Source: Patescibacteria group bacterium UBA3466 | GTDB lineage: Bacteria; Patescibacteriota; Minisyncoccia; Phycocordibacterales; UBA918 | Direction: 5' to 3' | NCBI GenBank assembly: GCA_002378195.1 | Contig: DFRJ01000002.1 | Location: 270,816-327,676, forward strand | Length of the DNA stretch: 56,861 nucleotides | Shown: positions 11,437 through 56,861 of the stretch, in pieces | Layout of the letters: every line of letters starts with the position of its first letter | How positions within the stretch are numbered: the stretch's first letter is position 1 | The notes under the pieces: model-generated | What the model was told of the DNA's origin: nothing | Database searches by the model: none | Seen by the model: the letters and a program-made list of their open reading frames with translations, nothing else | Made by a program: the position numbers and the translations under genes

Positions 11437-13095
11437 CTATTGTACAGCATTTTGTATATCGCGTCCGACGTAAACTGTGATCGGCGCATCGTCCTCATTT
11501 AAGCTATCAAAGGCTGAGGTTAAAGCGCCGAACAGTGTTTGACTCAAAACAGCTGCCTGCTCAGAAAATTCAGTTGAATACACAATCACGGTATTAACCT
11601 CTTGAGCACCCAGATCATTACTTACATCAACGACCTCATAACCCTCTTGTTCAAGGCGCAATCGCACATCCGCTGCTAACCCCGCTACCCCACTTCTATT
11701 AACAATAGATATTTTTGGCAAGGATTCATCTTTCGCAATCGGTAAGCTGGTTCCTTCGCGCAGTTCCTGATATCTCACCTCTTCCGAAGTAATAGTGACA
11801 TCCTCGCTTAGGCCATCAATTGTTACATCATATGGACGACTTGTTTGCGACGCAGATTTGATATATGAAACTACTATCAGGATAAACACCAATATGAGCA
11901 CGAGGACCAGGAAGAAGATACGGTAATTTCTAATAAATCTACCGATGGTTCCGAGCTTGCTAGATATATCAGGTGAGCTTTGCCATTGACCTCGCAAATC
12001 CAGCATATCAGCTTCAATTGGAGCCACGACGGATACTTTTCTTCTGGTCTGTGACGCCGCTGGGGTTGGTGAGCCTGCATCAGCATGCAAACCAGCCATG
12101 GACAGCATTCGTCTAACATACAACCTGATTGCCCAAGAAACTATATACACAAAGATGAACAGACCGATCAGCACACCGAGAATAATCTGCCAAGGAATCA
12201 CCCAAAAATGAACCTCCTGAGCTGCAAATTTGCGCCCGGCTTCACCATAAGCAAGCGTGACTTCAGCCTTATATCGGCCCATGTCACCAAAAGATTGTTC
12301 GCTCTTCCAGGTAAAATTGTATTTTCTAACACTTTCCGGAAGAACATTACCAAATAAGTTGGTTTGGTTAATTGGTATCAATCCCCTTTCTTGACCCCAC
12401 ATATTGGTGATGCGAATTTCACCCTGCGGGATAATATGAACGTTACCAGTATTTTCAAATCTTAATTCGAAGTTGACCTCAGGCTTGTCATGAATCGCAT
12501 TACTAGTTCTAAACGACCTGATGTTTCCTGACTCTTCAATATCACCTGTTACTCGAAGAAACAAAAGTGTGGTAACTATTTGCGAGGTAATCACTTTTGA
12601 ACCCTCTGAACCTTCAGGTGGCTTAGTACCAATCAATACAGCTGCAAAATGGCCTCCCGGAGGCGCATCATCCGGGACAGTAATGGTAAATGGTAATTCT
12701 ATTGTTTGCTCTGCTGGAATAGTTATTTGACCCTCTCTAATATCGACCCACTCAGCCATAGTTTGACCTTTTGTTTCCTCCTCAATGACTGGCACAAACT
12801 TACCTTGGCCTGACTCGCCCTGTGGTGCAAAGTTAACCACGTCTGCAAACACGTTAATGTCGTATGGATTTGGATTAATTACTCTAACAATACTGGTCCA
12901 CTCTTGAGCTGGATAGGCAGACATATCAAATAGTGTCGGAGAAACACTCAAAGACAACCCGCTTTGCGCAAAAACATTACCGAGCGGAGCAAGTAGTAAT
13001 AAGGCCGCAAGTAGTACGCAAATTATTTTATTCTTTAGGTTTAAGGTTGATATCATGGTCTTTCGGTTCAGGGTCGTGATTACCTTCTCTAACAA
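11437..13095 (-). CDS. CscA/DUF916-like two-beta-sandwich surface protein fused, after a TM segment, to a LytR_C-like domain
   Basis: 552 aa with a signal peptide (likely true start M14 at 13056: MISTLNLKNKIICVLLAALLLLAPLGNVFA). AEWVDIREGQITIPAEQTIELPFTITVPDDAPPGGHFAAV and FENTGNVHIIPQGEIRITN...GRYKAEVTLAYG are paralogous to the 341-aa and 317-aa ORFs. There are two TM segments. The C-terminus KISIVNRSGVAGLAADVRLRLEQEGYEVV...VIVY is LytR_C-like. Confidence 0.8.
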   Translation of the reverse strand: MLEKVITTLNRKTMISTLNLKNKIICVLLAALLLLAPLGNVFAQSGLSLSVSPTLFDMSAYPAQEWTSIVRVINPNPYDINVFADVVNFAPQGESGQGKFVPVIEEETKGQTMAEWVDIREGQITIPAEQTIELPFTITVPDDAPPGGHFAAVLIGTKPPEGSEGSKVITSQIVTTLLFLRVTGDIEESGNIRSFRTSNAIHDKPEVNFELRFENTGNVHIIPQGEIRITNMWGQERGLIPINQTNLFGNVLPESVRKYNFTWKSEQSFGDMGRYKAEVTLAYGEAGRKFAAQEVHFWVIPWQIILGVLIGLFIFVYIVSWAIRLYVRRMLSMAGLHADAGSPTPAASQTRRKVSVVAPIEADMLDLRGQWQSSPDISSKLGTIGRFIRNYRIFFLVLVLILVFILIVVSYIKSASQTSRPYDVTIDGLSEDVTITSEEVRYQELREGTSLPIAKDESLPKISIVNRSGVAGLAADVRLRLEQEGYEVVDVSNDLGAQEVNTVIVYSTEFSEQAAVLSQTLFGALTSAFDSLNEDDAPITVYVGRDIQNAVQ

Positions 13096-14058: not shown

Positions 14059-17000
14059 CTAGAATACCGGGACGGCTACATAATTAATGTTGGTTACATA
14101 ATCACCAGCCGGCTGATCTACACCGACTCGCATACGATAAATGATTGTTTCTGTATCGTTGGTAGGCACCGAGCTAAACATGATTTCACTTAATGATGTA
14201 CTGGCGGCAGCATAAGAATCAGTTGGTGAAAAACGACTGGAAGAGTTCTCTAGGGTTGCGTCGGTGGTGTGGTAGCCGAAGCAACTAGTTGTCATAAGTG
14301 GACACCCAGCAATCCAACTGACAGGCGCGGCATTTGTGCCTGAGATTGGATCAATTGTATTGCCGGATGAATCGGTTGGCTGCTGGTCTATATACTTGTA
14401 GACTGAATACCCTTCTGTCGCATTAGTGTTTACATTAATTTCTTGCGCCACTTCAACATCTGTATTAAACGGCAAAGATCCGAAATCAATAGTTGTCGCC
14501 GTTGAGGTAGCGTCAGTTGTTACACCAGCAACTGAAGTCTCTGCATCGACTCCGTTTACGGTAAATACTAACGCCGTACTCTCACCAGCCAAACTTGGAT
14601 CTGACGAGCTGGCTGCGATTACTTCGTCATTAGCCAGATCGTAGAGACGGAAATAATAAACCTGACCAAACTTTCTCGGCACATTTGTATACTGCAAGGT
14701 GAATTCGTATTCTTTATCTTCATTACCCAAATGATCTATGCCAGTGAGATACAAGTCACTCTCTTTATGTGAGCCGCAACCAGCTCCGACTCCTCCCACG
14801 CATGATTCAGAGCCAGCCAGTAACGCCGTGGTGATGGGATCATTATCAGTATCGACACCATCGTAGTAACACCACACTGAATTCGCTAAACAGCTTGATG
14901 TAGAAACCACGTCCTGAACATCTGAAAAATCGGGACTCTCTGCAAATTGGACTTTGAATGAGGCGTCCGTCTGCGGTAGATTCTTAATTTCGTCTAGAGT
15001 TACTCGTAGCTTCACCGCATTACCCTTCTCTACGTTAGTTGGCGCAACCTCAAAACCAGCCAGTGGTGATAAAGGCGTCTCGTTTGTTTCGTCGTCGTAC
15101 CAGCGCCAGCCGTCGACCACTGGTGTATAGCCATCAGTCCTAAGCTCTGGGTAGAAGAAGTAACCTTCAAGCAGGGAGTCGTCAGATCTAATCATCCTAA
15201 AGCAGTAGGTAGTTCTCTGACTGGCTCCATTGTGCTCAATGATCCAGTCGTACTCAATATCTTCACCTTCAAATACTGCAAATTCATTTGTTGCGGCTGG
15301 ACCACTTTCCACATACCTACCAGCTCTGTTAGATACAGATAAGAGCAAATCGCCCCCCGTTGGTGGATTACCCGATAATGAATCGCCATCTGTTACCCCG
15401 GCAGCATTAAATCCTCGCCATATTTCACCGCTAGCTGGCGCGCCAACATCTGACCAAACAGTAACTGCGGTACAGGTTGTAACTAGGGGCGCGTACTGCA
15501 GCTTCACTTCGAGATAGTCAGCTGGCAATGTTGCATTTGACACACGGGCTGACATCCTTAGTCGTACCGTATCTCCATCAATGAGAGGTTCATCAGTCGC
15601 AGTTATTGACGTTAATTCACCAAGATCGACTGCGCCGGCTGGCCAAGGATCGGTTGGGGTCAAAGCATCATTATCAACATAGAATCTGTAATAATTCTGA
15701 CGCACAGCAAGATCAGCAGCTGGCCATTGGACTACTTCTGTTCTGTATATGACAGAATTTCCGGTATCGCTCCGCCACAGTTCATATGATGAGGTTGAGA
15801 CTATTTCAAATCCTGCTAAGACTCTGGGAAATTGATTACCAACGGAATCAAGGGCTGTATTGGCGAATATCGAAGCGTTATCTGTGTCGTTAATTGGAGT
15901 TGCAATTGGAAGCGTAATAGTTAGTGGTTCAGCTCCCCCAGTTGGTGAACTACCATTGCTTCTTTGCACAAACATCTCTCCAGTGCCGGTTTGTAGATTC
16001 TCAATCACCCAAGCAACTGAGGTGTGTGTCACTCCAGTTGTTGTGGCGCTGGAAACTAATTGATATGAAACTGCACCGATGCTAGACAGCCACACCTCAT
16101 GACCGAAGTTCGCCATTGAAATATCTCCATCATAACGTTTCTGAGTATGTAAAAAGGTTCTAGCTAGACTATTAACCGCCGTTATACTTTCGACTTGAGG
16201 AGTACCAACATCTGTATACTCGTGCTCTGATCTCTGCACTCTCCAGTTAAGACCGGTAAACTCGATTACGGCATAACTAACAGAACCGGTATTGGCGCCT
16301 GTTGCTCCGCGTTGGAGGACCGGCTCATCAGTACTAGCTGACCAAGCAGCAGTCGATTGATGAGCGTAACCTTCATTTCTAGTACCACCAGTATGGAGCT
16401 GGCCAGTAATAAACACCGCGACATCTGCATCGTCTGAGATGCCAGCTACGGCTGTTCCGGTTGCTATAGTGTCGGTTGTTCCGTAAGAGACTACTCCTTG
16501 ATCACGCACCACCATTTCATTGTCTCCGCCGACTGGTCCGATATATTCTACGATTTCCCACGAAACAAAAGTGTTGCTGACCGAGTCTGTGTCGCGAGAT
16601 ATTGTAAAGCTAGTTTCAATATTTTCCGGATCTAAAATATAGGCGGCGTAATCATCAGTGTTTTGATTACCAATACTGGCCGCATCACGACCTGAGCCTG
16701 TGTGATGCGAATTTACAATGCGAACGAACGCACTAGTAGAGGCAGAGGGAGCCGTATAGTCTACCCCAGCAGTTAGGGTGAGACCGGTCCCAGACACCAA
16801 ATTTGAGCCGCGCTGCACCCGAAAATCTCTTTTTGCTTCTATTACGACTTCCGCGTATTGCTGATAACTAGGCAATGGACTTCCATTGGCTGTAACCCGG
16901 AAACAATACTCAGATTCATAAGGTGTATCGATAGTTGACTGGATGGAATATTCAAGATCAACATATTGATTCTCCGTTAAAGTGGTTGAGGCGGAGTAAG

Positions 17001-26656: not shown

Positions 26657-26729
26657 ACAACCAATTCCTATTATTATCTCCTGTACACATAGTTAATGTT
26701 TGAATGTATGTTGTGGAATGTACAGATAC

Positions 26730-26766
26730 AAAAAACCCCTCTCGTGGTGGGAGATAGGGTTTTTTG
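26730..26766 (-). terminator. intrinsic terminator after the 389-aa gene
   Basis: Minus strand: AAAAAACCCTATCTCCCaccacGAGAGGGGTTTTTTG, an interrupted GC-rich stem followed by T6. It lies about 35 nt after the stop at 26799. Confidence 0.75.
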
Positions 26767-48600: not shown

Positions 48601-51600
48601 ACTCACCAGTTTCGTTAGACGCATCGAACGAAACTAATTCGTAGGCCAGCTCTGTTTGACCGTCATCTTCAGTAATCCTGATATCGCCACCGTCACTCTT
48701 AACATCAGTCCAGAATTCTGAACCCAACATTGACAAATCAACATACAACGGTAAATCAGACACATCGGCTGGCACTTCATCCTCGTCTACCACCAAAGCG
48801 ATTCTGTCCTGGAAGCCAATATCAGAGTACCAGTCACTCGAACCTGGAGTAATCGGTGGGTACGTTCGATCGTCAGCCACGATTTCAACCGTACCAGTCT
48901 CAGCATTAAAGGTTCCGTTGTTGGTAAAATCACCGGCCACAAAGATAGTGCCAGAGCCTCCCGCCAGTGTGTCGTTTAGGCCAATAATGACATCGTACGC
49001 CGACACATCACCTGACACGGTGACAAATGCATTAGCACCATCAATCAACACATTACCGATATTTTGAGTTACTGGATTGTTATCAGTCCAAGTAAGGCCA
49101 GAACCGCCATCAAATGTAGTGGTTCCCGTACCGCTCCAGAAACCGCCCGATCCGTTGGTGAGACTACCAGCTAGATTAATATCAAAAGTTGATCGATCTA
49201 GAGTTCCGCTTGCCACAGTCAAGTCCCCCGATAGATCAAGATCAGTCGCGATGGTAAAGGTAGCCAGTCCAGCTCCTGAACCAAAGGAAAGGTTATGGAA
49301 ATCTAACGGACTTTCAAGGCTAGTAATAGTTTCCGCTCCGGAGGTGGCAGTCAGATTGATGGTTGAAATATCAGTAGACGATGTTGCATTATTTTCCCAA
49401 GAACCAGAAACGTTAAATACGTTGGCATCAAGCTCTATGATTCCGTCGTTAATGAAGTCATGAGTATCTATGGTTGCGACTGTCGAAGTTGACGGTAGAT
49501 AAATTTGGTTAGCTCCAACATAAAGATTAGCGTACGGACAGGTACCAACTCCACAGACTGTCAAATTGTTTGACACATCGACCTCAAAGAAGACATCCTC
49601 ATCACCAAGCGCTGTACTGTCATTTAACGCCAAGAGCGCATTGGTGGTAGTGCCGATCTCATCAGCGGCAATAGTGAGGTGTTGTTCGTACAAAGTCACA
49701 CCTGTGATGTCTCCCAAACCATCGTAAACAAATGAAGTAACCGCTTCGTCTTCTTCAAGAGCACCGTCTACCCATACTGTCACCACATCACCTTCAAAGG
49801 CGGTCACATTTGTGAGTGTCCACGTGCCAGCAGACACTGAAGCGCTGCCTACCACTGGACTACCGTTTACAGCCGCTCGAATAGTTCCCGCTCCCACATT
49901 GGTAATGCGGTCATACTCTTGCAAGGTACCGGACATGTTCACACCCTCACTCCACTCCAGCTGCCAGTCATCAAGAGTCGGACAATCAGCCCCGGAACAA
50001 TTGAGAGTAGCGAACGCCCTTATTTGCGGATAAAGATTGATATCAACATTTGTCAGATCTATTGGACTTGTACTGGTACCAGAGCTATTACCTGGAATCT
50101 GCCCGTCGGGAATAAGGGCGTAAACACCTTCACTTACCAGGTGCTCCATTTGGATCAAAACTTCACTCGCACCAGGTTCAGTAGCTGACCATGAGAAATT
50201 ATCAAACTTTGGTCCAGCGCCATCACTAAAGATGATGTCCTCACCCGCAATAGTACCAGCCAGACTACCGGTATCGGCTCGGACAATATTTCCAGCACTA
50301 TCTTCAAAGGCTGCGAACGACACAATGTTATCAATGTGACCGTCAGCAGTAGATCCTTGCTCGGAAATACTTACTGTCAAAGTAGTATTATTTTGTGTAC
50401 TACCAGTATCTTTTTGAGCAAAACCACCCTGCGCACCATCATCACCGTTGTTATGAATAACAGTTACTCCAGGAGTTGAACTAAAACCAGAAATGCTAAA
50501 TGAGTTTCCGGCTGCGCCACCTGTTACCACATCCGGTGAATTATTAAATTCAATATTAACTCCGGCGTTGGTACCTGTAGTGGTTGCCATCATCAGCCAG
50601 TCAATGTCCTCACCGCCAGTGTGCGTACTGGCTGAATGACGGCTTTCTGCCAGAGCTAGTCCGATTTGTGACACAGTAACCTCGTCAGCGTAGCCCCCGC
50701 CATCAATATGAGAGCCAATCCAATTTGAATCATTATTAGAAGAAATGGTAGCCAAAGCAGCTGGAGCAGAGTCAAATGCTGGGGAAATGGTCACGAGTTG
50801 AGAGACTCCGTTGGCATAACTTTCAACCTGCTTGGCAGTCACACCCTCTTCAGTACCAGCCACAATCCTAAAGCCGGACCCGCCGTTATCAACCTGCCAG
50901 TCTCCAGCCTCCATGACAATGTAGTCAACATCAGTACTACCAGTAAATGAATCAGTATAATCATCAACTTTAATCTCAAACGACTCAGTTGTCTTGTTGC
51001 GTACTCGAGCAGTTCGTCCATTATTAGTACCATTGAAATTAAACTCAGGCGAAGCTACCACCACCATATCAACATAGGCATTGGTGGTACTTACCGTAGT
51101 CCAATCATTATCAGTCAAAGCCACTGTTCCATATTCACCAATCACATTGGTTGTCTCCACCGAACCGGTGGTTGAAGCGATGGCTCCTGTTAATTCACCT
51201 TGCTGGAATTGTTCTCGAGTGGTCTGGAACCAAGTAGACAAAGTGGTACCGCTATTAATCGTGAACGAATCTGGATCCGACCACGGAGACCAAGAGTTTC
51301 CACCTTGTGGATCACGCGCTCTCGAACGCCACCAGTAGGTATTTCCATCTACAAACGGGGCACCGCCTGGTGTGGTGAAAGTGATTGTGTCACCTGAATT
51401 ATAAGGCGAACTGTCGCCACCATCAGCAATATTGGAGAATTGAGCACTGGTACTAGAGTTGTAGGTGGTAGAGCCACTGCTAAATAGAATGTCGGTACTA
51501 AATGATACCTCGTACTCAAGATCGTCACCCTGAGGATCCGTCGATACAAAGTCAAACACCGGTAATGTATCAGCCGTCTTTTGGTTATCAAACAAATCAC

Positions 51601-54600
51601 CTTGAACTGGCGTCTCTACTCGAAGACCCCAACGTACAGTCCATTCTTGCAATGACACTGTGGTACCTGACAAATTAGCCACTAACCTGATTTCGTTATA
51701 AGTGTCTGTATCTAGATCTAGGAGGTTAATCGGAGCTGTGGTGGTACCGATATCATTACCTGGAATCAAAGAGTTAGGCACTAGAGTCCATGAACCATTA
51801 TCGTTATATTGAACCTGAATCAAATTTGTGCCGGAAGTCTCCGTATCGGTCCAATCCACTTCACCCCACGCATTACCGACTGTCGCGTCATCAAAATCAA
51901 TCGCGGTTCCAATAATAGTCGCCGGTGAGCTAGACAGCGAAGCTGATCCAGACGGAGACGTGGTCGAAACATTAGTCAGCTCATTGGTATTAAACTGATC
52001 GCTGGTTGTTTGATACCACTCAGAAACAGTGATAACAGTGTCGGTAGTGAAGCTAGTCGGTACAGACCAGTCACTAGAAGTCGCCGAACCATCAGGGTCA
52101 CTCGCCCGCACCCTAAACCAGTAAGTGGTAGTTGGACTTAGAGCAACATTTGCGTTGTAACGTATCCGCTGCCCAGACGTAAACGGTGATTTATCTGACG
52201 GTACATCAAGGTTTTCAAAACGTACAAAGTTATCGTCAGAGTTTTCATCAATATCCACTGATCCAAAGTTGATATCGGTATCCACTTGTACCTGATAGTG
52301 AATATCATCGCCCGCAATGTCGGTAGCTGAAAATTCCAGAACCGGAGTCAAAACAGTAGTCTTTTCATTATCGAAGAAAAGCAGGTTGTCTGGAGTATTT
52401 GGTGGCCCAACCGTCTCAAGCTCTGGGTATAGAGTGTAGCTATTTAGAGCAGCTCCCTCAGCTCTTGCCATTCGGAAACAGTAGTTAGTATTAATATCTA
52501 CATTAGTTGCTTCTAGCACCCAGTCATATTCAATAACTTCTCCCGGCGGCACTTCTGCTGGCAGGAAGTCAGAGAAATTACGCTCCTCATAAGTACCAAA
52601 AATAGTGGAAGAAGCCAAGGTGGTACTGGATAAAGTTGTTCCATCCGGCACTAAAGCGTTGTTATATCCGGAGAAAGCGGCAGTGGTACTTCCCTGCTCA
52701 CCAATATCAAACCAGCTAGTCGCCAGACTACACTGCGAACTGGCCGCCGTTGCGTACTGCAACTTAAAGGCTGTTGAATTCTCTGTTCCAGTCGCGTTAC
52801 TGCCTTGCAAATTCAGCCTTAGCCGCAGGATATCGCCGTCTTCAACTGCTCCAGCCCCAGTAATAGCATCACCTTCGGCCACGGTCTCTGCTCCACCAAG
52901 CGGCCAACTGCTGGTTGGGGTTGTTTGATTAGCGTTTTCATACCAAGCAAATGATAGCTGGTCGTACTCAGCATCATTGGCCAATTCTTGAGGCAAGAAC
53001 AACAGATCAGATGTAAATATCTGGCTAAACTTTCGTGCCTGCACCGGACCAACTACGTTCTTCTCATCCTCACCGCCAGCCACTTCAGTATCTTCATAAA
53101 TCAGGAAGAACGGCACGTCGTTAGTGGCGATGACAGTATGTTCGCCACTATAGAAGGTGCCTTGGTTGGTACCAGTATTACTATCACCAATTCGTAAAGT
53201 TCCTGGATCAGTCGCTGTTGGGGTACAGGTACCAGAATCAATTTCTGTGCCAGTACTATCTACCAGAGAGATATTCACTGAACCGAAGCGCGGTGAACAG
53301 GCCACGGCAATAAACTGACTGTCGTTGGTTAATGCATACTGGGTACTAAACTCCATCTCCGGCCAGAACACGATACTTTCGTTACCGTCAGAGTCGGCCT
53401 GCTGGATAGCGGTCATATACTCCGTCTGTCCTGTCAAACGAACGCTGTCACCAGTAAACTGTGTACCAGCTGAACAGTTTGTACCACCTTGGTATTCACC
53501 TTGCAGAATACCAGTTTCGGAACCACTACCTCCACCGGAACAGAATACTGACGGATCCGGATTGTCTGCCAATGCCGTCATGTAATAGTTGTTTGAATCG
53601 AATCCGAACAAATCACGTGTAGTTGGCGGATAAGCTACCAGACCGTCTTGAGCTGTACCACCAGAACCACGATGCATGATCAGAACCGGACTAGTTGCCT
53701 CGAAGATAGCCGCGTCCGTACCTGCTGGACTACCAGCGTTTACTGTTGCAGTTGTACCCGTTGCGATATTGACCGTCTCACGCAAGGTGGTTCGCTCATA
53801 TGTCATCAAGGTCGTACTCGCGAATGGCGCATGCACGTAATATTGCTCAGTTCCTCGGTTGGTTGGAATAGCGTGAGTAGTAGTAGCAAAACTAATCGGA
53901 ACAATAGTGTCGCTACCATCAGTTGATGAGTTGTTAGTCACAGTACCAGAAATTGGCCCCAAAATACTGATGACTGACTCGCCATCAAAGGTACTAAAGG
54001 TCGTACGTTCACCAGCATTAAGCGGCACAGCTGCACCGCCGTCTATAGCCACTTCGTTATTATCTATCAAACTAACAATAGACACCTGATTGGCACCGCT
54101 GTCATCAACCACATAGAAAATGTCAGTCGAGGTACTATATGAGAAAGTAGCCAACTCATCACTAGCAGAAGAAGCTCCAGAATTGCCATAGTACAACCAA
54201 ATAATAGTATCTTCCCCAGCCGCCAACTCTTCTACCTGCACCCATATGTCTGCTTCTTCAGCTGTATCGTCAAAGTGCTGCACCCAGAAATCTAGTTCAA
54301 CAAATTCTGTAACCTGTAGCGTTTCCGCAGAAGATGTAGACATGAATGAATTTGGATCCACCAGGTTAGCGCCTTCGACTCGTGCCCAGGCTTCAGTTCG
54401 TGTAGTACTAGCAATACGGATTTCATCCAACAAACCGATAAATTCATTGGTGGCTTGGAAGTTACCAATCGCGGTTTGCTCTTGACCAATCACTAGACCG
54501 TTCACATCGATATCTAACGCATCGATCGCTTGAGTATCTGGGTTTTCAGTATCTGGAATACCATTTAGATAAAAATCAAATTCGTCAGTTGCGTCTTCAC

Positions 54601-56861
54601 CGACAGTCATGAAGTAGTCCCACTCGTCGTCACCCCAGGATTGCCCATCGTCTAGTGCAGTACTTTCTGTTCCCACACTATGCACCCAGAAGAATTCGTC
54701 GGCCCCTGAACCATCAAACTCAAGTTGTAACCTAAACTCGTCATCTTCAACTGCATTAGCACCACTCAAGATAGTACGTTCGTCTGTCGCTGACACGACT
54801 GGCACCTTATAGAAACCAGACACAGTTACATCCTGCACTCCATCGAGCACTTGGTATGGCAGGTTTACGTAGTCTGACGAAGAATCACCCAGTTCAAGAC
54901 CGCCTCCAATTCGTCCAACATTATCATTGGATGAAGTTTCATCGTCCGCATGGTACTGATTTACAGTCGAATCCTTGTATAGTTCGGCGTTACCGGTACC
55001 TGAAGCGTCTTCCTCAAAGTGGTAAACAGCTTGGAATCCATTAGTCCAAACATTCTCTGAGCCAAAAGTATCTGCTCGATCGTAAGCCAAAGCATCTTGA
55101 TTCTCAAAGTAAACGTAGAAATCGTTCGAGCCAGAATCAGTAAGATCAGCTCTGAAGTACAACTCCCCTGTTTCAGATCCTGTATCTATACCGACTAGTT
55201 CAATCGGTAACTCAGTGACACCGTCACCACTAGTAACGCGGATATCCCGTCCGTCGCTCGCTACTCTAGTGAAGAATTCAGACCCAAGCATCGACAGATC
55301 TAGATAAACCGGATAATCAGTAAGTGAATCTGGAATATTTTCGGCCGGTATCGTCACTCGCTGTCGCCCTTCCCAGCTCGTACTGTACCAGCTTAGTGAA
55401 GTAGCATTGTTTGGAGTTTGACTTTGGCGCGCTACATAGAACTGCTCTGGGTTGCCCAAGTTAATAGATTCAGCTCGTGTCCAAGCTGGTACTCTATCGA
55501 CAGTTGCAATACGCAAAGCATCCACGAAACCTTGCCAGTTTCCACCACCACCATCACGACCCATCTGGAATCCACCGGAAGTATTTGAAGGATTATTGAT
55601 TGTTTGCACTTCTTCATCTACTAAGAATCCGTCTTCGTAGACATAGTTATTGTCTCCTGCAGTTGTTGTACCGATAGTGGCAAAACCATGCCAGACAGTT
55701 GGGTCTAAATAAGTTCGATTGAGCCAAGTCGCAGTCGGACCAAAGTAGAATCGACCGTTAGTAGCGCTGTACCACGGCTCATAACGAATAATCTCAGGAC
55801 TAGCGCCAGTACCCCACTGATACAAAGCTTCGCCATTGAGCACGCTCATGAAATACGAACCTGTAATGTTCAGTGGTGACCCCGGAGAGAAATCCCACGT
55901 CGAACTCGCCAGCCAACCAGCTCCGGCCGTGAAGTCGATCGCTGTACCAAGCTGACCAGAAGTAGTAGCCAAGGCAACTGAGTTAACCGTCAGATCCTGA
56001 CCGTTTCCAGTTTCGTCAGTAATGGTATTACCGATTGTTGTTGGATCATCAGTAAAGTGGTAAACCGCATCATAGCTTGCCCACACGGCTTCAGAACCTA
56101 GCGGGTCAGTACTGGCGAGTAGAGATAGAGATGTGTCGCCATAATACACATAGAAAGTATTAGCAGCGTTGGCAGCTACCACCGGCGCTAAGAAGTGCAG
56201 CTCGCCGGTTTCAGCTGCTGTGTCGATCTCCGCTAAATCAAACGGAATAAAAGTACCATCACTTGTTGTTACTCGAATATCAGAACCATCACTCTGTACC
56301 TCCGTCCAGAATCCGCTATCAAAACTATCCAAAGCAACCGAGACTGGGAAATCAGTCAGATCAGCATCGACGGTCAGAGCTGGTATTTCAACTGGGACTC
56401 TACCGGTGAAGTCAAAATCGAGCCAGTTATTGATGGCAGTATCGGCATCACTGAAGTTACCAGCCATTTCTTGAATGAATCTAATATCAGAACCATCGCT
56501 ATTAACATTGGTCCAGAAGTCAGTCAAAGAACTATCTAGTTCGAAGAAAATCTGATACTCGGTTAAATCCGCGCCAGTGTTATTTGGCACACTAATTGGC
56601 ATACGGTAAGTCCACTCAGAAGTCCAGAATGGGTCAAGCAGACCATATTCACTTCCACCAATTGCTTCGATCCAGTACTCTCCACTTGAGAAAGCAGGGA
56701 AAGATATATCCATCTTGAAGTACAAGGTTTCGCCTGGTCTGATCAATTGGCCAGAAGGGGTATGGGCTCGCACCTCAAAATTATCGGGAACTTCCTTCTT
56801 GTCTGGGCCAAATCCGACAAACTCAGCCACCCTCTGGAAGATTCCAGGCTGAGGCAGGCTA
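36656..56861 (-). CDS. giant surface protein, more than 6,724 aa, 5' end probably outside the window
   Basis: Uninterrupted reading frame from the TAG at 36656-36658 to the window edge. The track start at 56830 is a GTG. The 10 in-frame codons upstream (SLPQPGIFQR) contain no stop, and there is no signal peptide at the called start. Contents are five DUF2341-LamG cassettes, FN3-like units, long beta-helix-like G/T/S/N repeats, three super-repeats, WRNDDG/YCFR modules and the type-2 C-terminal domain. Confidence 0.92.
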   Translation of the reverse strand, partial: SLPQPGIFQRVAEFVGFGPDKKEVPDNFEVRAHTPSGQLIRPGETLYFKMDISFPAFSSGEYWIEAIGGSEYGLLDPFWTSEWTYRMPISVPNNTGADLTEYQIFFELDSSLTDFWTNVNSDGSDIRFIQEMAGNFSDADTAINNWLDFDFTGRVPVEIPALTVDADLTDFPVSVALDSFDSGFWTEVQSDGSDIRVTTSDGTFIPFDLAEIDTAAETGELHFLAPVVAANAANTFYVYYGDTSLSLLASTDPLGSEAVWASYDAVYHFTDDPTTIGNTITDETGNGQDLTVNSVALATTSGQLGTAIDFTAGAGWLASSTWDFSPGSPLNITGSYFMSVLNGEALYQWGTGASPEIIRYEPWYSATNGRFYFGPTATWLNRTYLDPTVWHGFATIGTTTAGDNNYVYEDGFLVDEEVQTINNPSNTSGGFQMGRDGGGGNWQGFVDALRIATVDRVPAWTRAESINLGNPEQFYVARQSQTPNNATSLSWYSTSWEGRQRVTIPAENIPDSLTDYPVYLDLSMLGSEFFTRVASDGRDIRVTSGDGVTELPIELVGIDTGSETGELYFRADLTDSGSNDFYVYFENQDALAYDRADTFGSENVWTNGFQAVYHFEEDASGTGNAELYKDSTVNQYHADDETSSNDNVGRIGGGLELGDSSSDYVNLPYQVLDGVQDVTVSGFYKVPVVSATDERTILSGANAVEDDEFRLQLEFDGSGADEFFWVHSVGTESTALDDGQSWGDDEWDYFMTVGEDATDEFDFYLNGIPDTENPDTQAIDALDIDVNGLVIGQEQTAIGNFQATNEFIGLLDEIRIASTTRTEAWARVEGANLVDPNSFMSTSSAETLQVTEFVELDFWVQHFDDTAEEADIWVQVEELAAGEDTIIWLYYGNSGASSASDELATFSYSTSTDIFYVVDDSGANQVSIVSLIDNNEVAIDGGAAVPLNAGERTTFSTFDGESVISILGPISGTVTNNSSTDGSDTIVPISFATTTHAIPTNRGTEQYYVHAPFASTTLMTYERTTLRETVNIATGTTATVNAGSPAGTDAAIFEATSPVLIMHRGSGGTAQDGLVAYPPTTRDLFGFDSNNYYMTALADNPDPSVFCSGGGSGSETGILQGEYQGGTNCSAGTQFTGDSVRLTGQTEYMTAIQQADSDGNESIVFWPEMEFSTQYALTNDSQFIAVACSPRFGSVNISLVDSTGTEIDSGTCTPTATDPGTLRIGDSNTGTNQGTFYSGEHTVIATNDVPFFLIYEDTEVAGGEDEKNVVGPVQARKFSQIFTSDLLFLPQELANDAEYDQLSFAWYENANQTTPTSSWPLGGAETVAEGDAITGAGAVEDGDILRLRLNLQGSNATGTENSTAFKLQYATAASSQCSLATSWFDIGEQGSTTAAFSGYNNALVPDGTTLSSTTLASSTIFGTYEERNFSDFLPAEVPPGEVIEYDWVLEATNVDINTNYCFRMARAEGAALNSYTLYPELETVGPPNTPDNLLFFDNEKTTVLTPVLEFSATDIAGDDIHYQVQVDTDINFGSVDIDENSDDNFVRFENLDVPSDKSPFTSGQRIRYNANVALSPTTTYWFRVRASDPDGSATSSDWSVPTSFTTDTVITVSEWYQTTSDQFNTNELTNVSTTSPSGSASLSSSPATIIGTAIDFDDATVGNAWGEVDWTDTETSGTNLIQVQYNDNGSWTLVPNSLIPGNDIGTTTAPINLLDLDTDTYNEIRLVANLSGTTVSLQEWTVRWGLRVETPVQGDLFDNQKTADTLPVFDFVSTDPQGDDLEYEVSFSTDILFSSGSTTYNSSTSAQFSNIADGGDSSPYNSGDTITFTTPGGAPFVDGNTYWWRSRARDPQGGNSWSPWSDPDSFTINSGTTLSTWFQTTREQFQQGELTGAIASTTGSVETTNVIGEYGTVALTDNDWTTVSTTNAYVDMVVVASPEFNFNGTNNGRTARVRNKTTESFEIKVDDYTDSFTGSTDVDYIVMEAGDWQVDNGGSGFRIVAGTEEGVTAKQVESYANGVSQLVTISPAFDSAPAALATISSNNDSNWIGSHIDGGGYADEVTVSQIGLALAESRHSASTHTGGEDIDWLMMATTTGTNAGVNIEFNNSPDVVTGGAAGNSFSISGFSSTPGVTVIHNNGDDGAQGGFAQKDTGSTQNNTTLTVSISEQGSTADGHIDNIVSFAAFEDSAGNIVRADTGSLAGTIAGEDIIFSDGAGPKFDNFSWSATEPGASEVLIQMEHLVSEGVYALIPDGQIPGNSSGTSTSPIDLTNVDINLYPQIRAFATLNCSGADCPTLDDWQLEWSEGVNMSGTLQEYDRITNVGAGTIRAAVNGSPVVGSASVSAGTWTLTNVTAFEGDVVTVWVDGALEEDEAVTSFVYDGLGDITGVTLYEQHLTIAADEIGTTTNALLALNDSTALGDEDVFFEVDVSNNLTVCGVGTCPYANLYVGANQIYLPSTSTVATIDTHDFINDGIIELDANVFNVSGSWENNATSSTDISTINLTATSGAETITSLESPLDFHNLSFGSGAGLATFTIATDLDLSGDLTVASGTLDRSTFDINLAGSLTNGSGGFWSGTGTTTFDGGSGLTWTDNNPVTQNIGNVLIDGANAFVTVSGDVSAYDVIIGLNDTLAGGSGTIFVAGDFTNNGTFNAETGTVEIVADDRTYPPITPGSSDWYSDIGFQDRIALVVDEDEVPADVSDLPLYVDLSMLGSEFWTDVKSDGGDIRITEDDGQTELAYELVSFDASNETGELHFLANSISGTASTTFYIYYNNATATAYAVDDPYGRNTVWNDFEAVYHFEDDPTSVSNTISDASGNGNDLLVEGAGLATTTGQMGLAIDMSVSAGLLRDSSFTWEAGDPLKTSGWYLLGAAVNEAIWQFGTGAQPDQLYFEPWDSGTNRGQYVFGNTTGTTYTFLPRDTLNYTHFTTIGVTSTAESNLVYHDGILRETQSQTVVDPSNTNANGLQIGRTGTGGSFSGQIDELRFSKTNRDADWVATEENNQSNPDIFFSTSSVEAYQPPVVIDEATHNITSGGSAFNNLTFDDATTTPAFTEPSVTLNGDFTIATGTVSLPTGVMTVGGDFTNNGFFQHNNAEVEFTTGGTATITLNGTEFFNSFYDVTFDGSGTIIFDDANATATNDVVFNDGDVVLPSGVFAIGGSMQTPGGAFDANGGTVKFTSPSSENVTAGGSSFNDVIFGNGVVGFNWYDLSWGKRSVIEISPESITESLSAFPVYVDLSTLGATFWSDVDVSGVDIRVTQSDGQTEVPVELVSIDTVGETGELYFRANSLSNVSTSTFYLYYDNPAADAVASTTAFGAQNVWTNDYLAVYHFEDEGQSGRDNVAEYKDSTSNANDAEDDTNATGTTGLIGGGVEFDQANHVNGTDTFDHLNLPIGLIDNRAEWTISTWYQTSSGGGNDPTFVSGYGGENELIVRLENSTLMETYSNGSSNQGGQVAIADIGDGVWRQFVYTYSDDSASDFAGYFYNGAEVYTDTNVVGATLTINADGLIFGAEQDGAVDSSTGIGEALDGFVDEVRFSSTTRSDAWIAAEFATLDDPASFYSVTDEALEDVAPVFTLNEATTDVDGNVTINGSQLVAPTTNFTIGGSALNIGGTYDPNNATTTFDSNDLGETVAFGDGAFWNLSFNGVGGGWIVATNTVNNNLSLITGADYLQSPNTTMTVEGIFNNSFASSSTTWTDSTLVLSGGDYVVTGRLDSGDDYAVVEVSSSTNIVIWNSTISSSTISDSSSIYMPDYGLTNGELRIFGNYTQSNNAEYWSYNTDFDGTDISGSPRQVDVRIASGSVVTIETDFEIFGDSSASTTVDVLTAGTYQLIASSSNLSAQYFDVTGTGVNGFELLNGVTVGTFSDGSFDIASGTSAMTVDKSTVEVQPSGNYSDFYFNSIAGDQFNVTASGTPNGFWLFTGGGGDRYGESYDNDDGDPGAIQWDDSNYAISISGVVYADDGVTPETAPICNGVTQNVTVQVVGSGTFTAPCNPLDGSYTVSGVNYTGDPKIVTYLNSEATDGTVQVELMDEATGSGVGSPFSVTRPSVIDDSVLIAMVAKDDDPAVSPPAGWTAISTLGVAADDDLFTGIWYRVVPDAATEPTSYSFTSADGGEHYHYWIGSFVNVDTTTPIDVSNGWTQLVDDTTPSTTPVTTTVPGTYVLSAWYVDNDAAVTTPDTTDWDYRFRESVTADNNSFTVISKKFATATTTDTVEMTDVAGGRDPHVGTFALNPAVAATASGTAFASAVTQTPIGASEVQQFNDITLTGDASGAGDVVALGSISVTAPATQDGDVMIAVIGREDEPTITAPAGWNLVAEIGNATQNDMYSGVWYKIITDAASEPASYSFTNDDTSGTEQYSYWIGSYSNVDTSNVMDVSPVSWTKLFNANPDATASSITTETDNARVFAAWYVVADTAVDTPASPWVTLVEDLWGGSQNGRSLNVSTQVLATAGASGDADLSAVGTQEVHTIQFALRPTPISVATELTDMDLYRNRVIVRHEDSTPLSIADITFDSSDDTDLRFTVSTSSSPDTLDVLAGSGLYVWNDMEFAPNGEVTMLGGGNDLADGSMTIGSDATFTATTTVDLTVGGSMYVESGGVFAGASSTVEFTATNTAQQIGAAGSSTITFYDLEFTGVGGDWAVQTPIVSQTDILVSTGTVSGISDITVQAGSLTGDGLVDMTGGTVTINESNTFGGNQDWTFNNLTLGSGGVAGITVPATNGTTTIRNVLTISTAHFLDAYGSVWDLQGNGAVFAESGTFVEGTSTVRYSGATPNVTQTPYYNLVIDTDGGGDVAATAPVTGLQVLNDLIVGAIGTSTLDVNSNDPVVGVNGDVYIGGFGTVDASDIQTFTANGNWDNDGNFNANGGTVELSAAAGSLTIAAGSSSFATLDVLGAADYNFTENATATANMVINTGSFVLDPGLTLAVGGTFSNTEDDVDTDWTGTTLSLFSGTAFNINGKSVSDTYNNIVTADGTHPRVWNSTSTSVTTNGNSSLYSMNHSGVEGDLYIFGDLVSDSYDDHWSYEEDFDGTALGVPRVANVLVETGGSVRYLGGSLSVIGSSSATTTIGVNGGGTYSLEISGDTDLDMGRYEIRDTTIEGLILSGEPTVNDLSNGDFEVAIAGGSAMTVGGTVIDVNPAQEYNFMRFATTTAINAFNVTATGTSASAWRFVNVFGNLDGEAKDVDPGGDPGYLTWQDSAAIINISGNVYSDEGISTSAACDSTTGNVFLSINGSTFATTTCNGDGLGGGTGFYQFTGISYGLGNTLTVYIDNEPEKAVTVTQDPISSISGFDLYENRVIVKHESGAPMTIADMGTWDSDDDADVLFDVEVGATDTLVLPSDTKLIVWDTKEFEPNGNITVPGGGGGSAYDGTLELRDDAIFTGNAGEVHTVGGSLISGTDAVFTSGDSEFIFTSAVAGRTVDTNEGGFYDVTFNGAGDWTMSDVVSTIGNDFAITSGGVTLSATTTVGGSFDNTGGTFDANTGALIFSSTAGGNTVEFGGSDAHRVEFIDSGSWTFNDVNATATDSFIVATGTVTLPSGDFAIGEDFIVNDTVTQAGGDIIVSGSGGGNTITLNGSDLYGLRIQAGAGDYTLTDASAALLGDLFVESGTLTVGTGTLSIGGSFDATAGTFVNNSGTVLFNSDDTGEFIDPGNNDFYSVQIAGAGGGWTILGDATTTSNFTLSTGNSFTMSSGTVLYVGGAFINTFNGANTEWQGSNVVLDGANEYEINLKTTPDERYNILTLGDNSDISAWNTSATSTVVPITSSFYSQDHGGVDGDLYIFGDYHIATTTEYWSRATDFDGTALGSPRDVNVAIASSSIVSVDGGVLNMIGATNGTTTVTNQGSGRYSFLATSGTINADNYSFRNLDTDGLQMTGNIDVTSLDNGDFELAQDNSIAITLTDTTINANASFVINDTRFDAGGFSGGVNVSLNATTTNSWSFTGAIGDLWGEAFDVDGTDDCSSVRWDDSACLLTEQTNYRWRNDDGGEGAAPLTWYDTDWGARKRVRVINVDASTYNDVAVKLEVDYDADMQTDFDDLRFTDSSGTTTISYWIERFTTGNDATVWVKVPTLAADAVTELYMYYDNTSASDIGDPSDVFNMSEDFEDNNITEYEGDTGLFNTAGTYAFGGGYGLDAAGNESAKATDGIARFDTTVAQGEIIRFMQYVDMGAGSGDEVCTMFGVQNTGPNPPAGVTYNDNYAVCLSPLRDRVAIVEDVENVDTTGTQLATADITLSTGWYEVEVDWQTSGDIDVSVFDSTGSLQATTTANDTTYTSGGIGFTFWFQNGGWDSYVSWPRTDSKPTTYFGAEQVDGGASWAAEQDTATGGFNFGETARLRVGIENTGLDIENQNFRLEFAPKLTAPSCEAVSGGSFVQVPVAASCGSSALCMTTSASTTDGDPTTDHLVTDAGQFVAGEVVANTSNQTGNLDVEQNQYTELEYAINLTVNAVNDAYCFRVTDGGDELDSYALLPELTLAFDPVLDTPTLNDGLDITLVPGATTTVIASTTVTDFNGVADIGNATTTFYTTSAGALCTPDDNNCYVATGTACSLTNCGSTSCTLQCSADFQFHADPTDDDGGEEWFAFMEVEDLSGGTDAESTVGQELLTLRALNVQNAIGYGTVDVNQNTGATNPQTLLENYGNESIDVEISGTDMTDGAASVIPASQQIFATSTFDYAVCTTCSALTLIGTDVEVDLNKPTVSSPLVTDQIYWGIEVPFGTASNPHSGVNSFTAISDD
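36659..37436 (-). other. shared C-terminal domain, type 2, copy in the giant ORF
   Basis: See 30402-31378. The protein ends ...QIYWGIEVPFGTASNPHSGVNSFTAISDD. Confidence 0.65.
37440..37930 (-). repeat. WRNDDG...YCFR-type module (giant ORF, C-proximal body)
   Basis: ETARLRVGIENTG...FRLEFAPKLTAPSCEAV...ELEYAINL...AYCFRVTDGGDELDSYALLPELTL. The matching N-terminal strand NYRWRNDDGGEG lies about 320 aa upstream (near 38,920), on the other side of cassette 5. Confidence 0.6.
37935..38884 (-). repeat. DUF2341-LamG-like cassette 5
   Basis: WYDTDWGARKRVRVINVD...FDDLRFTDSSGTTTISYWIERF...ATVWVKVPTLAADAVTELYMYYDN, followed by a jelly-roll-like segment. Confidence 0.6.
38950..39745 (-). repeat. super-repeat R3 (~255 aa)
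   Basis: TEWQGSNVVLDG...YSQDHGGVDGDLYIFGDYHIATTTEYWSRATDFDGTALGSPRDVNVAI...LDNGDFELA...VRWDDS. Confidence 0.75.
41250..42055 (-). repeat. super-repeat R2 (~255 aa)
   Basis: TDWTGTTLSLFSG...YSMNHSGVEGDLYIFGDLVSDSYDDHWSYEEDFDGTALGVPRVANVLV...LSNGDFEVA...LTWQDS. Confidence 0.75.
43440..44708 (-). repeat. tandem pair of ~200-aa PAGW modules
   Basis: DDSVLIAMVAKDDDPAVSPPAGWTAIS...FTGIWYRVVPDAATEPTSYSFTS...HYWIGSFVNVDTTTPIDV parallels QDGDVMIAVIGREDEPTITAPAGWNLVA...YSGVWYKIITDAASEPASYSFTN...YSYWIGSYSNVDTSNVMDV. Confidence 0.7.
45010..45790 (-). repeat. super-repeat R1 (~255 aa)
   Basis: TTWTDSTLVLSGG...YMPDYGLTNGELRIFGNYTQSNNAEYWSYNTDFDGTDISGSPRQVDVRI...FSDGSFDIA...IQWDDS. The W-to-W span is 745 nt, against 759 nt in R2 and R3. 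Confidence 0.75.
46165..47245 (-). repeat. DUF2341-LamG-like cassette 4
   Basis: WYDLSWGKRSVIEISPESITESLSAFPVYVDLSTLGATFWSDVDVSGVDIRVTQSDGQTEVPVELVSID...TFYLYYDN...AVYHFED...VDEVRFSSTTRSDAWI. Confidence 0.65.
47825..48836 (-). repeat. DUF2341-LamG-like cassette 3
   Basis: DRIALVVDEDEVPADVSDLPLYVDLSMLGSEFWTDVKSDGGDIRITEDDGQTELAYELVSFD...TFYIYYNN...AVYHFEDDP...IDELRFSKTNRDADWV. Confidence 0.65.
52412..52955 (-). repeat. WRNDDG...YCFR-type module (giant ORF, N-proximal)
   Basis: FAWYENANQTTP...ILRLRLNLQGSN...FKLQYATAASSQCSLATSWFDIG...IEYDWVLE...NYCFRMARAEGAALNSYTLYPELET. Confidence 0.65.
54341..55376 (-). repeat. DUF2341-LamG-like cassette 2
   Basis: WEGRQRVTIPAENIPDSLTDYPVYLDLSMLGSEFFTRVASDGRDIRVTSGDGVTELPIELVGID...DFYVYFEN...AVYHFEED...LDEIRIASTTRTEAWA. 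Confidence 0.65.
55435..56614 (-). repeat. DUF2341-LamG-like cassette 1 (with duplicated DUF2341 head)
   Basis: WTYRMPISVPNNTGADLTEYQIFFEL...GSDIRFIQ, then GRVPVEIPALTVDADLTDFPVSVALDSFDSGFWTEVQSDGSDIRVTTSDGTFIPFDLAEID...TFYVYYGD...AVYHFTDDP...VDALRIATVDRVPAWT. Confidence 0.65.

Follow-up and report, generated by a model that had tools for sequence, protein, structure and literature searches.

A conserved island of exported proteins in a Paceibacteria-type bacterium joins a putative, remotely Pam-like pilin with homologues of WxL-interacting proteins and a MacB-type ABC transporter

Introduction

Among the uncultured bacteria of groundwater and other habitats, Paceibacteria (Parcubacteria) rank with the most abundant, and to our knowledge essentially nothing is known of how they attach to hosts or particles. 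Here we analyse a stretch of 56,861 nucleotides (nt) from the Patescibacteria group bacterium UBA3466 (contig DFRJ01000002.1), referred to below as the window, and in particular an island of genes for exported proteins that runs from position 11437 to its right edge. On balance, and with modest confidence, we read this island as encoding a composite surface system: a chaperone-assisted fibre of the Pam/WxL class with a giant tip adhesin, anchored through cohesin-dockerin contacts, and a second adhesin module that is co-transcribed with an ATP-binding cassette (ABC) transporter.

The locus constitutes a testable parts list, comprising a candidate fibre subunit, its helpers, a tip adhesin, membrane anchors and an ABC-linked giant adhesin. 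It also joins two literatures that do not cite each other, namely that of the Pam pilus of the candidate phyla radiation (CPR), described in 2026, and that of the WxL domain and the WxL-interacting proteins (WxLIP) of lactic acid bacteria and enterococci.

Results

The island and its shared parts

The island comprises 16 long open reading frames (ORFs), all on the minus strand (Table 1). A preliminary description of the window had counted at least 17 exported proteins on one strand; the single strand holds, the count comes to 16, and export is not universal, the ABC ATPase being cytoplasmic. A hydropathy scan finds an N-terminal signal or anchor in 13 of the 16, the others being this ATPase of 440 amino acids (aa), the polytopic 404-aa permease and the truncated giant ORF. 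A C-terminal transmembrane (TM) helix is present in the 317-, 341-, 363- and 583-aa proteins, and in the 552-aa protein the signal peptide is followed by two TM helices. Pfam and NCBIfam searches match no island ORF to a metabolic enzyme family, in agreement with the earlier view that such enzymes are absent.

Table 1 Features of the island, listed from left to right in window coordinates
Feature	Position	Strand	Description and evidence
552-aa WxLIP-type protein	11437..13095	-	Second TM helix and extracellular LytR_C domain; Pfam, EfmWxLIP1 profile match
341-aa WxLIP-type membrane-anchored two-Ig protein, putative chaperone/anchor	13028..14053	-	BLASTP, hhalign, TM scan
2,059-aa putative tip adhesin	14059..20238	-	Signal peptide, three WRNDDG/YCFR modules, C-terminal Pam-like pilin domain
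C-terminal pilin-like domain of the 2,059-aa protein	14062-14577	-	Ends in VPVF-COOH; NF058581 match
634-aa exported protein	20346..22250	-	Long acidic low-complexity regions on either side of a TolB-like beta-propeller; NCBIfam matches weak
247-aa adaptor	22346..23089	-	Cohesin 22574-22927 and dockerin 22367-22498; Pfam just under cut-off, family-level support
228-aa protein	23094..23780	-	N-terminal TM helix, no family match; syntenic, 24-43 % identical
583-aa protein	23784..25535	-	Signal peptide, cohesin-like domain, Big_13 Ig domain, TM residues 475-493, charged tail
363-aa protein	25547..26638	-	Signal peptide, cohesin-like domain, second domain, C-terminal TM; BLASTP to 583-aa protein E 8e-18
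Terminator-like hairpin and U6 after pilin gene	26729..26767	-	RNAfold
389-aa putative major fibre subunit, Pam-like pilin	26799..27968	-	Signal peptide; AlphaFold2 model, NCBIfam NF058581, homologues, alignments
Conserved linker and C-terminal domain of the 389-aa protein	26802-27383		Ends in TPVF-COOH
N-terminal beta-sandwich of the 389-aa protein	27384-27857		
Terminator-like hairpin AUCGUGGC-acag-GCCACGAU and UUUUU after 367-aa gene	28219..28246	-	RNAfold
367-aa secreted protein	28245..29348	-	DUF4215 Cys-rich repeat, Gly-rich linker, Ig-like domain, C-terminal dockerin 28266-28409
317-aa WxLIP-type protein	29350..30303	-	Signal peptide, two Ig-like domains, C-terminal TM; BLASTP, hhalign, synteny
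Terminator-like hairpin and U-run after 674-aa gene	30334..30372	-	RNAfold, -29 kcal/mol for 90-nt segment
674-aa protein	30399..32423	-	N-terminal TM anchor, at least three beta-sandwich domains, 14 Cys, conserved tail 30402-31148
MacB/FtsX-type permease, 404 aa	32469..33683	-	Four TM helices and extracytoplasmic core domain; MacB_PCD 65.9, FtsX 58.2 bits
ABC ATPase, MacB/LolD/FtsE type, 440 aa	33686..35008	-	Pfam ABC_tran 110.6 bits; NCBIfam LolD/FtsE/MacB-like
525-aa secreted protein with several FN3 domains	35058..36635	-	Pfam fn3 and Pur_ac_phosph_N
Giant surface protein, at least 6,724 aa, N-terminus past window edge	36656..56861	-	DUF2341 x5, Laminin_G_3 x2, Ig-like domain, WRNDDG/YCFR modules
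Cys-containing C-terminal tail of the giant protein (YWGIEVP ... G.N.FTA)	36659..37405	-	Common to 674-aa protein; BLASTP E 7e-13

The genes are tied together by shared parts, as found by all-against-all BLASTP, in which the E-values refer to a 19-protein database and lie far beyond chance. Residues 200-389 of the 389-aa protein match residues 1888-2059 of the 2,059-aa protein (E 6e-11), both ending in PVF-COOH, and residues 475-670 of the 674-aa protein match residues 6550-6724 of the giant (E 7e-13), with a YWGI-x-VP motif in both. The WRNDDG/YCFR repeat modules recur in the 2,059-aa and giant proteins (best E 5e-26), the 341- and 317-aa proteins are paralogous to the 552-aa protein (E 2e-17 and 1.5e-6, respectively), a cohesin-like N-terminal domain is common to the 363-, 583- and 247-aa proteins, and a dockerin-like tail to the 247- and 367-aa proteins. 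The preliminary description had proposed each of these links from the letters, as a common terminal domain of about 190 aa in the first pair, a common Cys-containing tail in the second, repeated WRNDDG...YCFR modules, three paralogous two-beta-sandwich proteins whose anchors the TM scan also finds, and three cohesin-like and two dockerin-like modules; all are now supported by BLASTP or hhalign.

A pilin-like subunit and its C-terminal domain

The domain shared by the 389- and 2,059-aa proteins remotely resembles that of a recently described pilus. In this Pam system, cryo-electron microscopy (cryo-EM) of filaments of Candidatus Mycosynbacter amalyticus led to two pilins, PamA and PamB, which are the second and ninth most abundant proteins of that organism and in which the donated linker is among the most conserved parts; they are accompanied by membrane-anchored PapD-like chaperones with a C-terminal TM helix (PamC and PamD), a tip (PamT) and an anchor (PamR) (bioRxiv 10.64898/2026.03.03.709456). 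The NCBIfam model of the pilin C-terminal domain, NF058581 (CPR_Pam_pilin_C), aligns with the C-terminal 146 residues of the 2,059-aa protein over model positions 3-148 of 148 (E 4.4e-6, 26.8 bits) and also matches the 389-aa protein (E 1.3e-3, 18.8 bits) and 13 of 23 family members from other genomes (best E 2.4e-8); one of the 23 matches the PamT model weakly (E 9.5e-4). In the profile searches this is the only significant family match of the client domain, as we call the shared terminal domain by analogy with WxL clusters. Sequence searches of the PDB with the 389-aa protein and with a profile of its family gave nothing relevant.

The 389-aa protein follows the plan of PamA and PamB, with a signal peptide, an N-terminal sandwich, a linker and a C-terminal beta domain. 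In its AlphaFold2 model the sandwich (residues 41-188) is confident, with a predicted local distance difference test score (pLDDT) of about 88, the C-terminal beta domain (residues 226-389) is of moderate confidence, and the intervening segment 196-225 is unplaced in the monomer (pLDDT about 33). Within this segment F204 and G208 are invariant over 23 pilin-like and tip-like sequences. Being unplaced in the monomer model and carrying invariant residues, as would be expected of a donated strand, the linker DTxFTFTVxG is likely to be one. The assignment of the 389-aa protein to the Pam class therefore rests on remote sequence similarity together with architecture.

Homologues of the 389-aa protein number more than 1,770, with top matches 60-79 % identical. 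A HMMER search whose query was the C-terminal 200 residues of the 2,059-aa protein (E up to 1e-3) retrieves 629 cluster representatives. In all of them the C-terminal domain stands last in the host protein, whose length ranges from about 250 to 5,226 aa, and the conserved end [AIV][TVI]P[VTI]F-COOH is common to small and large members. Judged by this distribution, the PVF domain behaves as an attachment module. At the other end of the 389-aa protein, the signal-peptide region (residues 1-38, 27857-27968) is unusually conserved, with W25, G28, A37 and A38 invariant in 35 sequences, which hints at a specific processing or targeting step.

Homologues of WxL-interacting proteins

The 317-, 341- and 552-aa proteins, each with two Ig-like domains, are by profile comparison homologous to the WxL-interacting proteins of Firmicutes. 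The Pfam model WxLIP_PGBD (DUF916) matches the 552-aa protein below its gathering score (E 2e-4, 21.7 against 27.3 bits) and 13 of 25 relatives (best E 3.2e-8), and the family profile finds the EfmWxLIP1 structures 9i25 and 9i1y in the PDB (E 2e-7), in which a search with the 341-aa sequence by itself gave nothing relevant. The reference set consisted of seven WxLIP and eleven WxL proteins encoded on annotated plasmids of Enterococcus, Lactococcus, Lactiplantibacillus and Levilactobacillus. Against the seven WxLIP, hhalign gives a probability of 98.4 % (E 5.7e-15) for the 341/552 family over 231 columns that span both Ig-like domains, and 90 % (E 1.6e-6) for the 317 family. The anchors that had at first been called CscA-like are thus confirmed as such. 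The 552-aa protein has in addition a LytR_C domain (Pfam, 43.7 bits). If begun at the TTG at 13095, its ORF shares 68 nt with the 341-aa gene (13028-13095), and the ATG at 13056 (M14) is likely the more plausible start.

The corresponding label for the clients, a WxL-like tail, is not sustained: the PVF tail is no recognisable WxL domain and instead remotely matches the Pam pilin C-terminal domain. PF13731 (WxL) has no match at E up to 5 in 23 members of the PVF-tail family, and hhalign against WxL gives a probability of 3.7 % for an alignment of 23 sequences and of 4.6 % for one of 133. A greedy hhalign alignment is collinear over 158 columns (FG; GY.V against GW.L; Y..I.YI against Y.tTitW.L), which is suggestive only, and identity of the PVF tail with the WxL domain is thus not demonstrated.

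These observations bear on an alternative without filaments, in which the island would encode a wall complex of the WxL/Csc type. The C-terminal domains would then bind the cell wall non-covalently and be retained at the membrane by the WxLIP-type proteins. Of the clients, the 389-aa protein would be the abundant small one, and adhesin domains would be displayed by the two large ones, the 2,059-aa and giant proteins. The strong WxLIP homology speaks for it, as do the combination of a small and a large client with a WxLIP, which fits the published definition of a WxL cluster, the collinear 158-column alignment, and the LytR_C domain, from whose usual context a wall association may be surmised. 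The lack of any Pfam WxL match in the 23 members and the low hhalign values argue against it, however, as do the Pam pilin domain as the only significant client-domain match and the two-domain pilin plan of the 389-aa protein with its unplaced, conserved linker. We regard a wall complex as unlikely.

Less probable still is that the 389-aa protein is the subunit of an S-layer or sheath, the other genes encoding independent envelope proteins and adhesins brought together by shared regulation or ancestry. The 389-aa gene is indeed highly conserved and has terminators on either side, as might an abundant structural protein, Foldseek matches include BslA, a surface-layer-forming Ig-like protein, and the island is predicted to have several transcription units. 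But hundreds of large proteins that are otherwise unrelated terminate in this same C-terminal domain, a distribution more in keeping with a fibre or attachment module than with a lattice subunit, WxLIP genes directly flank the pilin gene in distant genomes, and gene order is kept down to 33-59 % identity.

Two further candidates were rejected: a sortase-type pilus, since no island ORF has an LPXTG motif or a sortase match, and a type IV pilus, since none has a prepilin-like N-terminus or matches a pilus-assembly ATPase.

A proposed second client pair with a giant adhesin

The giant ORF has no in-frame stop upstream before the window ends. Its relatives are longer at the N-terminus by 740-900 residues, which include a signal or anchor, so the full protein would be about 7,500 aa. 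The 674-aa protein, with which it shares its tail, likely starts at M22 (32360), giving 653 aa, since its homologues are 615-650 aa long. In its AlphaFold2 model a TM helix at the N-terminus precedes at least three beta-sandwich domains; the last ~130 residues, within the shared tail, are strongly conserved yet modelled with very low confidence (pLDDT 30-45). Foldseek with this model against the PDB returned generic tandem Ig arrays only (mastigoneme, complement MG domains, integrin legs), and in profile searches the ~250-aa tail matched nothing in Pfam or the PDB. A relation of this tail to the pilin C-terminal domain or to WxL is rejected for now, hhalign giving at most 1 % and Pfam nothing.

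The logic of a client pair with its WxLIP thus occurs twice in the island, as the 389- and 2,059-aa proteins with the 341- and 552-aa proteins, and as the 674-aa and giant proteins with the 317-aa protein, whose gene always directly follows the 674-type gene in syntenic loci. Beside the giant gene, the FN3 protein ends (~35061-35100) in an almost invariant TFGWV[KN]NIG[AK]-COOH, though the protein as a whole is only 37-39 % identical in divergent loci (L093:4332-5861; L096:4762-6189), and this peptide may serve in docking.

Conservation across relatives

A genome scan with the pilin gave 26 loci, nine of which have the exact order of the window (giant-FN3-ABC-MacB-674-317-367-389-363-583-228-247-634-2059). 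A metagenome scan with the 674-type tail gave 68 loci, and all 39 of these that extend over at least 9 kb are collinear with the window. The preliminary description had asked whether the gene set is syntenic and co-conserved in relatives, and in the nine genome and 39 metagenome loci it is. Within it, the block giant-FN3-ABC-MacB-674-317-dockerin-cohesin is kept where orthologues are only 33-59 % identical. In distant genomes, with pilins 40-46 % identical, a compact order is found: a tip-like, a 341-like and a 552-like gene, the pilin gene, a 552-like gene, a dockerin gene, a cohesin/TM gene and a gene resembling the N-terminus of the giant.

Nearest named relatives of the island proteins come from metagenome-assembled genomes (MAGs) labelled Candidatus Nomurabacteria, Kaiserbacteria, Pacebacteria and Parcubacteria, and by its relatives the source of the window is of the Patescibacteria (CPR), Paceibacteria/Parcubacteria type. 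Several MAGs (those of loci L005, L006, L010-L014, L022 and L026) are titled "uncultured Candidatus Saccharibacteria"; the loci L005, L006 and L012 share their gene order with Nomurabacteria MAGs, their ABC genes being 83-86 % identical to those of the window, and the Saccharibacteria labels are probably unreliable. One locus (L016, JAWKSP010000002.1) has its FN3, pilin and 583-like genes each in two pieces (1332-2818, 10001-11147 and 12490-14141), which could reflect frameshifts, decay or assembly errors.

The MacB-type ABC pair

The ATPase and permease genes are adjacent, 2 nt apart, and the ABC_tran, MacB_PCD and FtsX matches all exceed their Pfam cut-offs; these scores and the coordinates agree with the earlier placement of a MacB/FtsX-type pair between the giant/FN3 genes and the 674-aa gene. 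Relatives of this type VII class, such as LolCDE and FtsEX, act on extracytoplasmic substrates by mechanotransmission. The ATPase (median identity in relatives 83-84 %) carries a C-terminal extension of about 200 aa (residues ~240-440, 33686-34290) that has no family match and looks rich in charged residues; it is probably helical, to judge from its sequence, and it is kept in divergent loci, where ATPases of 443-448 aa align over residues 1-434.

One could also regard the pair as an unrelated housekeeping transporter of the FtsEX/LolCDE kind without any role in surface assembly. It is by far the best conserved part of the block, with a median identity of 83-85 % against 46-67 % for its neighbours, and it was not seen within 10 kb of the pilin gene in distant genomes. 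Yet it lies between the FN3 and 674-type genes in all 37 metagenome loci that cover this region, even where the ATPase is only 36-48 % identical, and between it and the giant, FN3 or 674 genes there is no terminator-like hairpin. We hold a housekeeping role to be somewhat unlikely. Because gene order is kept in divergent loci, the ABC pair is stably tied to the block of giant, 674, 317, dockerin and cohesin genes.

Cohesin and dockerin modules

Only the 367-aa protein scores above a Pfam cut-off for these modules (Dockerin_1, 24.8 against 22.9 bits), the 247-aa protein staying below for both Cohesin (23.9 against 24.1 bits) and Dockerin_1 (17.9 against 22.9 bits). Among 35 relatives of the 247-, 363-, 583- and 367-aa proteins, Dockerin_1 matches 17 (best E 2.8e-9) and Cohesin 13 (best E 2.5e-8), and at family level the modules are thus supported by sequence. 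Their layout is that of an anchor with cohesin and TM helix (363 and 583 aa), an adaptor with cohesin and dockerin (247 aa) and a cargo with dockerin (367 aa). The charged tail that follows the TM helix of the 583-aa protein would be cytoplasmic, and the 583-type gene is conserved beside pilin genes in distant relatives.

In distant Paceibacteria the dockerin protein has an N-terminal domain similar to that of the pilin (389-aa residues 35-197; L015:12387-13232, L018:7637-8911, L022:12748-14781), in the place where the 367-aa protein has its DUF4215 Cys-rich repeat. It is mainly these distant dockerin proteins that suggest a role of the cohesin-dockerin set in anchoring the fibre.

Transcription units

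Folding of the intergenic regions with RNAfold revealed bulged hairpins that a simple promoter/terminator scan had missed. A hairpin with a U-run follows the 674-aa, 367-aa, pilin (389-aa) and 247-aa genes; the other junctions are 1-49 nt long, except for the gap of 107 nt between the 634- and 2,059-aa genes, which has no strong hairpin. This gives approximately six predicted units: giant-FN3-ABC-MacB-674, 317-367, 389, 363-583-228-247, 634, and 2059-341-552. The hairpin downstream of the pilin gene and the 276-nt gap upstream suggest that it is monocistronic, and a monocistronic gene between terminators would fit a very abundant subunit.

Discussion

A proposed assembly pathway

As a potential explanation for these findings, the 389-aa protein would be exported by Sec, and the 341- and 552-aa membrane-anchored two-Ig proteins would cap its strand-deficient C-terminal domain. 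The subunit would then polymerise by strand complementation, the cap being exchanged for the linker of the next subunit, as in Pam pili. Since it has the same C-terminal domain, the 2,059-aa protein, with about 1,900 aa of adhesin modules, would be built into the same fibre, most simply as its first subunit, at the distal tip. The dockerin-tailed 367- and 247-aa proteins and the cohesin-bearing membrane proteins of 363 and 583 aa would tether the assemblies, with the base of the fibre held by a dockerin-cohesin link. The giant and the membrane-anchored 674-aa protein would form a second client pair, served by the 317-aa WxLIP, in a module predicted to be co-transcribed with the FN3 protein and the MacB/FtsX-type transporter. 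The latter may work mechanically on an exported partner, either by extracting an N-terminally anchored client from the membrane or by inducing a conformational change, for instance in the FN3 protein. The sequence analysis itself establishes the homologies, architectures, topologies and co-conservation, from which polymerisation, the order of subunits, the pairing of clients with WxLIP-type proteins and of cohesins with dockerins, and the task of the ABC pair are inferred.

Several observations weigh against this composite reading. The NF058581 scores of 26.8 and 18.8 bits are far under the curated cut-off of 55 bits and indicate remote homology only. Foldseek with the 389-aa model against the PDB, which did not include the Pam coordinates, found generic Ig-like folds only (FnBPA, BslA, cohesin), and no NCBIfam model of a Pam chaperone, PamR or PamE matches the island proteins. 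The 317-, 341- and 552-aa proteins, with signal peptide, two Ig-like domains and C-terminal TM, do flank the pilin and tip genes, again with no Pam-chaperone match. The 2,059-aa protein retains a linker-like strand, which makes its placement at the tip alone uncertain. The second tail shows no detectable kinship with the pilin C-terminal domain or WxL (the latter 0.1-0.2 % by hhalign), and the ABC pair may be merely a linked housekeeping system.

The divergent loci L093, L094 and L096 also belong here. They keep giant-FN3-ABC-MacB-674-317-367-363-583 but lack a pilin gene at the junction of the 367-like (dockerin) and 363-like (cohesin) genes, a gap of just 9 nt in L096; their ATPases are 36-48 %, permeases 53-59 % and 674-type proteins about 33-36 % identical to those of the window. 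The pilin gene thus looks like a separate cassette in this clade. Given the approximately six units and these pilin-less loci, the two sets of genes may therefore build separate structures, and the single surface structure initially envisaged is not borne out.

Comparison with known systems

The preliminary description had considered the system undescribed, a view that no longer applies to its core, the Pam pilus having been reported in the 2026 preprint. Like the Pam locus, the island belongs to a CPR host, encodes a putative Sec-exported pilin in which a conserved linker joins an N-terminal beta-sandwich to a C-terminal Ig-like domain, has putative helpers that are membrane-anchored two-Ig proteins with a C-terminal TM helix and no usher or other trans-envelope machine, and uses the pilin C-terminal domain in several proteins; the 389-aa protein is close in size to PamB (38.7 kDa). 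It differs in that similarity is remote (19-27 bits against a cut-off of 55 for NF058581; NF058579 is a further Pam-related model), that the lineage is Paceibacteria, and that the tip candidate is a 2,059-aa adhesin and not a single-domain PamT. Neither the RbmA-like, TM-anchored PamR nor PamT has a match in the window, and cohesin-TM and dockerin proteins would take the place of PamR. The locus further contains a MacB-type ABC pair, a giant adhesin and a second family of tails, and ATP-synthase genes are not in view. The highest Pam prevalence is reported for Saccharimonadia and Microgenomatia, and the preprint makes no mention of WxL, DUF916, ABC transporters, cohesin or Paceibacteria (bioRxiv 10.64898/2026.03.03.709456).

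A WxL cluster is defined by one WxLIP together with a small and a large protein that have a C-terminal WxL domain in common (PMC1534035; PMC10599100), and AlphaFold2 predictions have a hairpin of the WxLIP insert into the WxL domain (PMC10599100). The island resembles the WxL/Csc clusters of Lactobacillales and Listeria in its three homologues of WxLIP (DUF916-DUF3324-TM) and in having, twice, a small and a large client with a common tail beside a WxLIP. Unlike them, its clients are not recognisable as WxL proteins, it has no LPXTG protein of the CscD type, it comes from CPR and not from Firmicutes, and cohesin-dockerin modules and an ABC pair are extra; nowhere in the window do two or more PF13731 proteins lie within four genes of a WxLIP, as the criterion for WxL/Csc clusters demands. 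On the client side the locus thus falls short of the strict definitions of both systems, lying below the NF058581 cut-off for Pam and without PF13731 for WxL, and it agrees with them in its WxLIP and in its architecture.

With chaperone-usher pili (Pap/Fim) the proposed assembly would share an incomplete Ig fold, a cap by a two-Ig chaperone and completion by a strand of the neighbouring subunit, and the island also has an adhesin with a C-terminal pilin domain and a conserved extreme C-terminus of the subunit, here PVF-COOH. Unlike those pili it has no outer membrane or usher, its helpers are membrane-anchored, its pilin has two domains, and no sequence relation was detected. As in cellulosome scaffolds, Cohesin and Dockerin_1 modules are arranged into a putative anchor, adaptor and cargo, but no carbohydrate-active enzymes are attached here and scores in the window are near or under the gathering thresholds. 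The ABC pair resembles type VII systems (MacB/LolCDE/FtsEX) in its separate ATPase, four-TM FtsX permease and MacB periplasmic core domain, and departs from them in lacking a MacA/TolC partner here and in the 200-aa extension of its ATPase. In the literature we found no CPR surface locus described as having cohesin-dockerin, ABC or WxL components. What appears new is therefore the Paceibacteria lineage, the doubled client/WxLIP logic with a novel tail, the conserved MacB-type pair, the cohesin-dockerin set and a possible relation between Pam and WxL.

Such a relation suggests itself because clear WxLIP homologues sit beside clients that match the Pam pilin domain only. One could go further and speculate that Pam pili and WxL/Csc are branches of one ancient monoderm strand-capping system, in which membrane-anchored two-Ig proteins of the WxLIP type cap strand-deficient C-terminal domains and pass them on, and that in Paceibacteria a single machine, with a mechanotransducing MacB-type ABC transporter and a cohesin-dockerin chain, deploys and anchors both the ~7,500-aa adhesin and the pilus; taken as a whole, we consider this joint reading rather unlikely. 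If it were true, WxL clusters would be fibre-assembly systems and not simply wall-binding. The link between Pam and WxL, if real, would in itself change the view of the WxL clusters involved in virulence and colonisation and extend donor-strand-type assembly across monoderms.

Genomic surroundings

The left 11 kb of the window hold housekeeping genes (UvrB, tRNA-guanine transglycosylase, an FKBP isomerase, an AI-2E transporter and a redoxin), composition is even over the window, and no tRNA or Rfam match was found within it. An origin of the island as a mobile element or phage is rejected given this even composition and the flanking housekeeping genes (uvrB, tgt and the FKBP-type isomerase gene). 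Directly adjoining the island (10399-11419) are genes for a membrane-anchored thiol-disulfide oxidoreductase of the Redoxin/AhpC-TSA family (193 aa) and a small TM protein (151 aa), which could serve its Cys-rich exported proteins; the 674-aa, giant, 2,059-aa and 367-aa proteins have 14, 30, 20 and 9 Cys, respectively. Farther left (777-3344), with housekeeping genes between it and the island, lies a gene for an 855-aa envelope protein, Lys-rich at its N-terminus, that has a Big_13 Ig-like domain and, at its C-terminal end, a TM helix.

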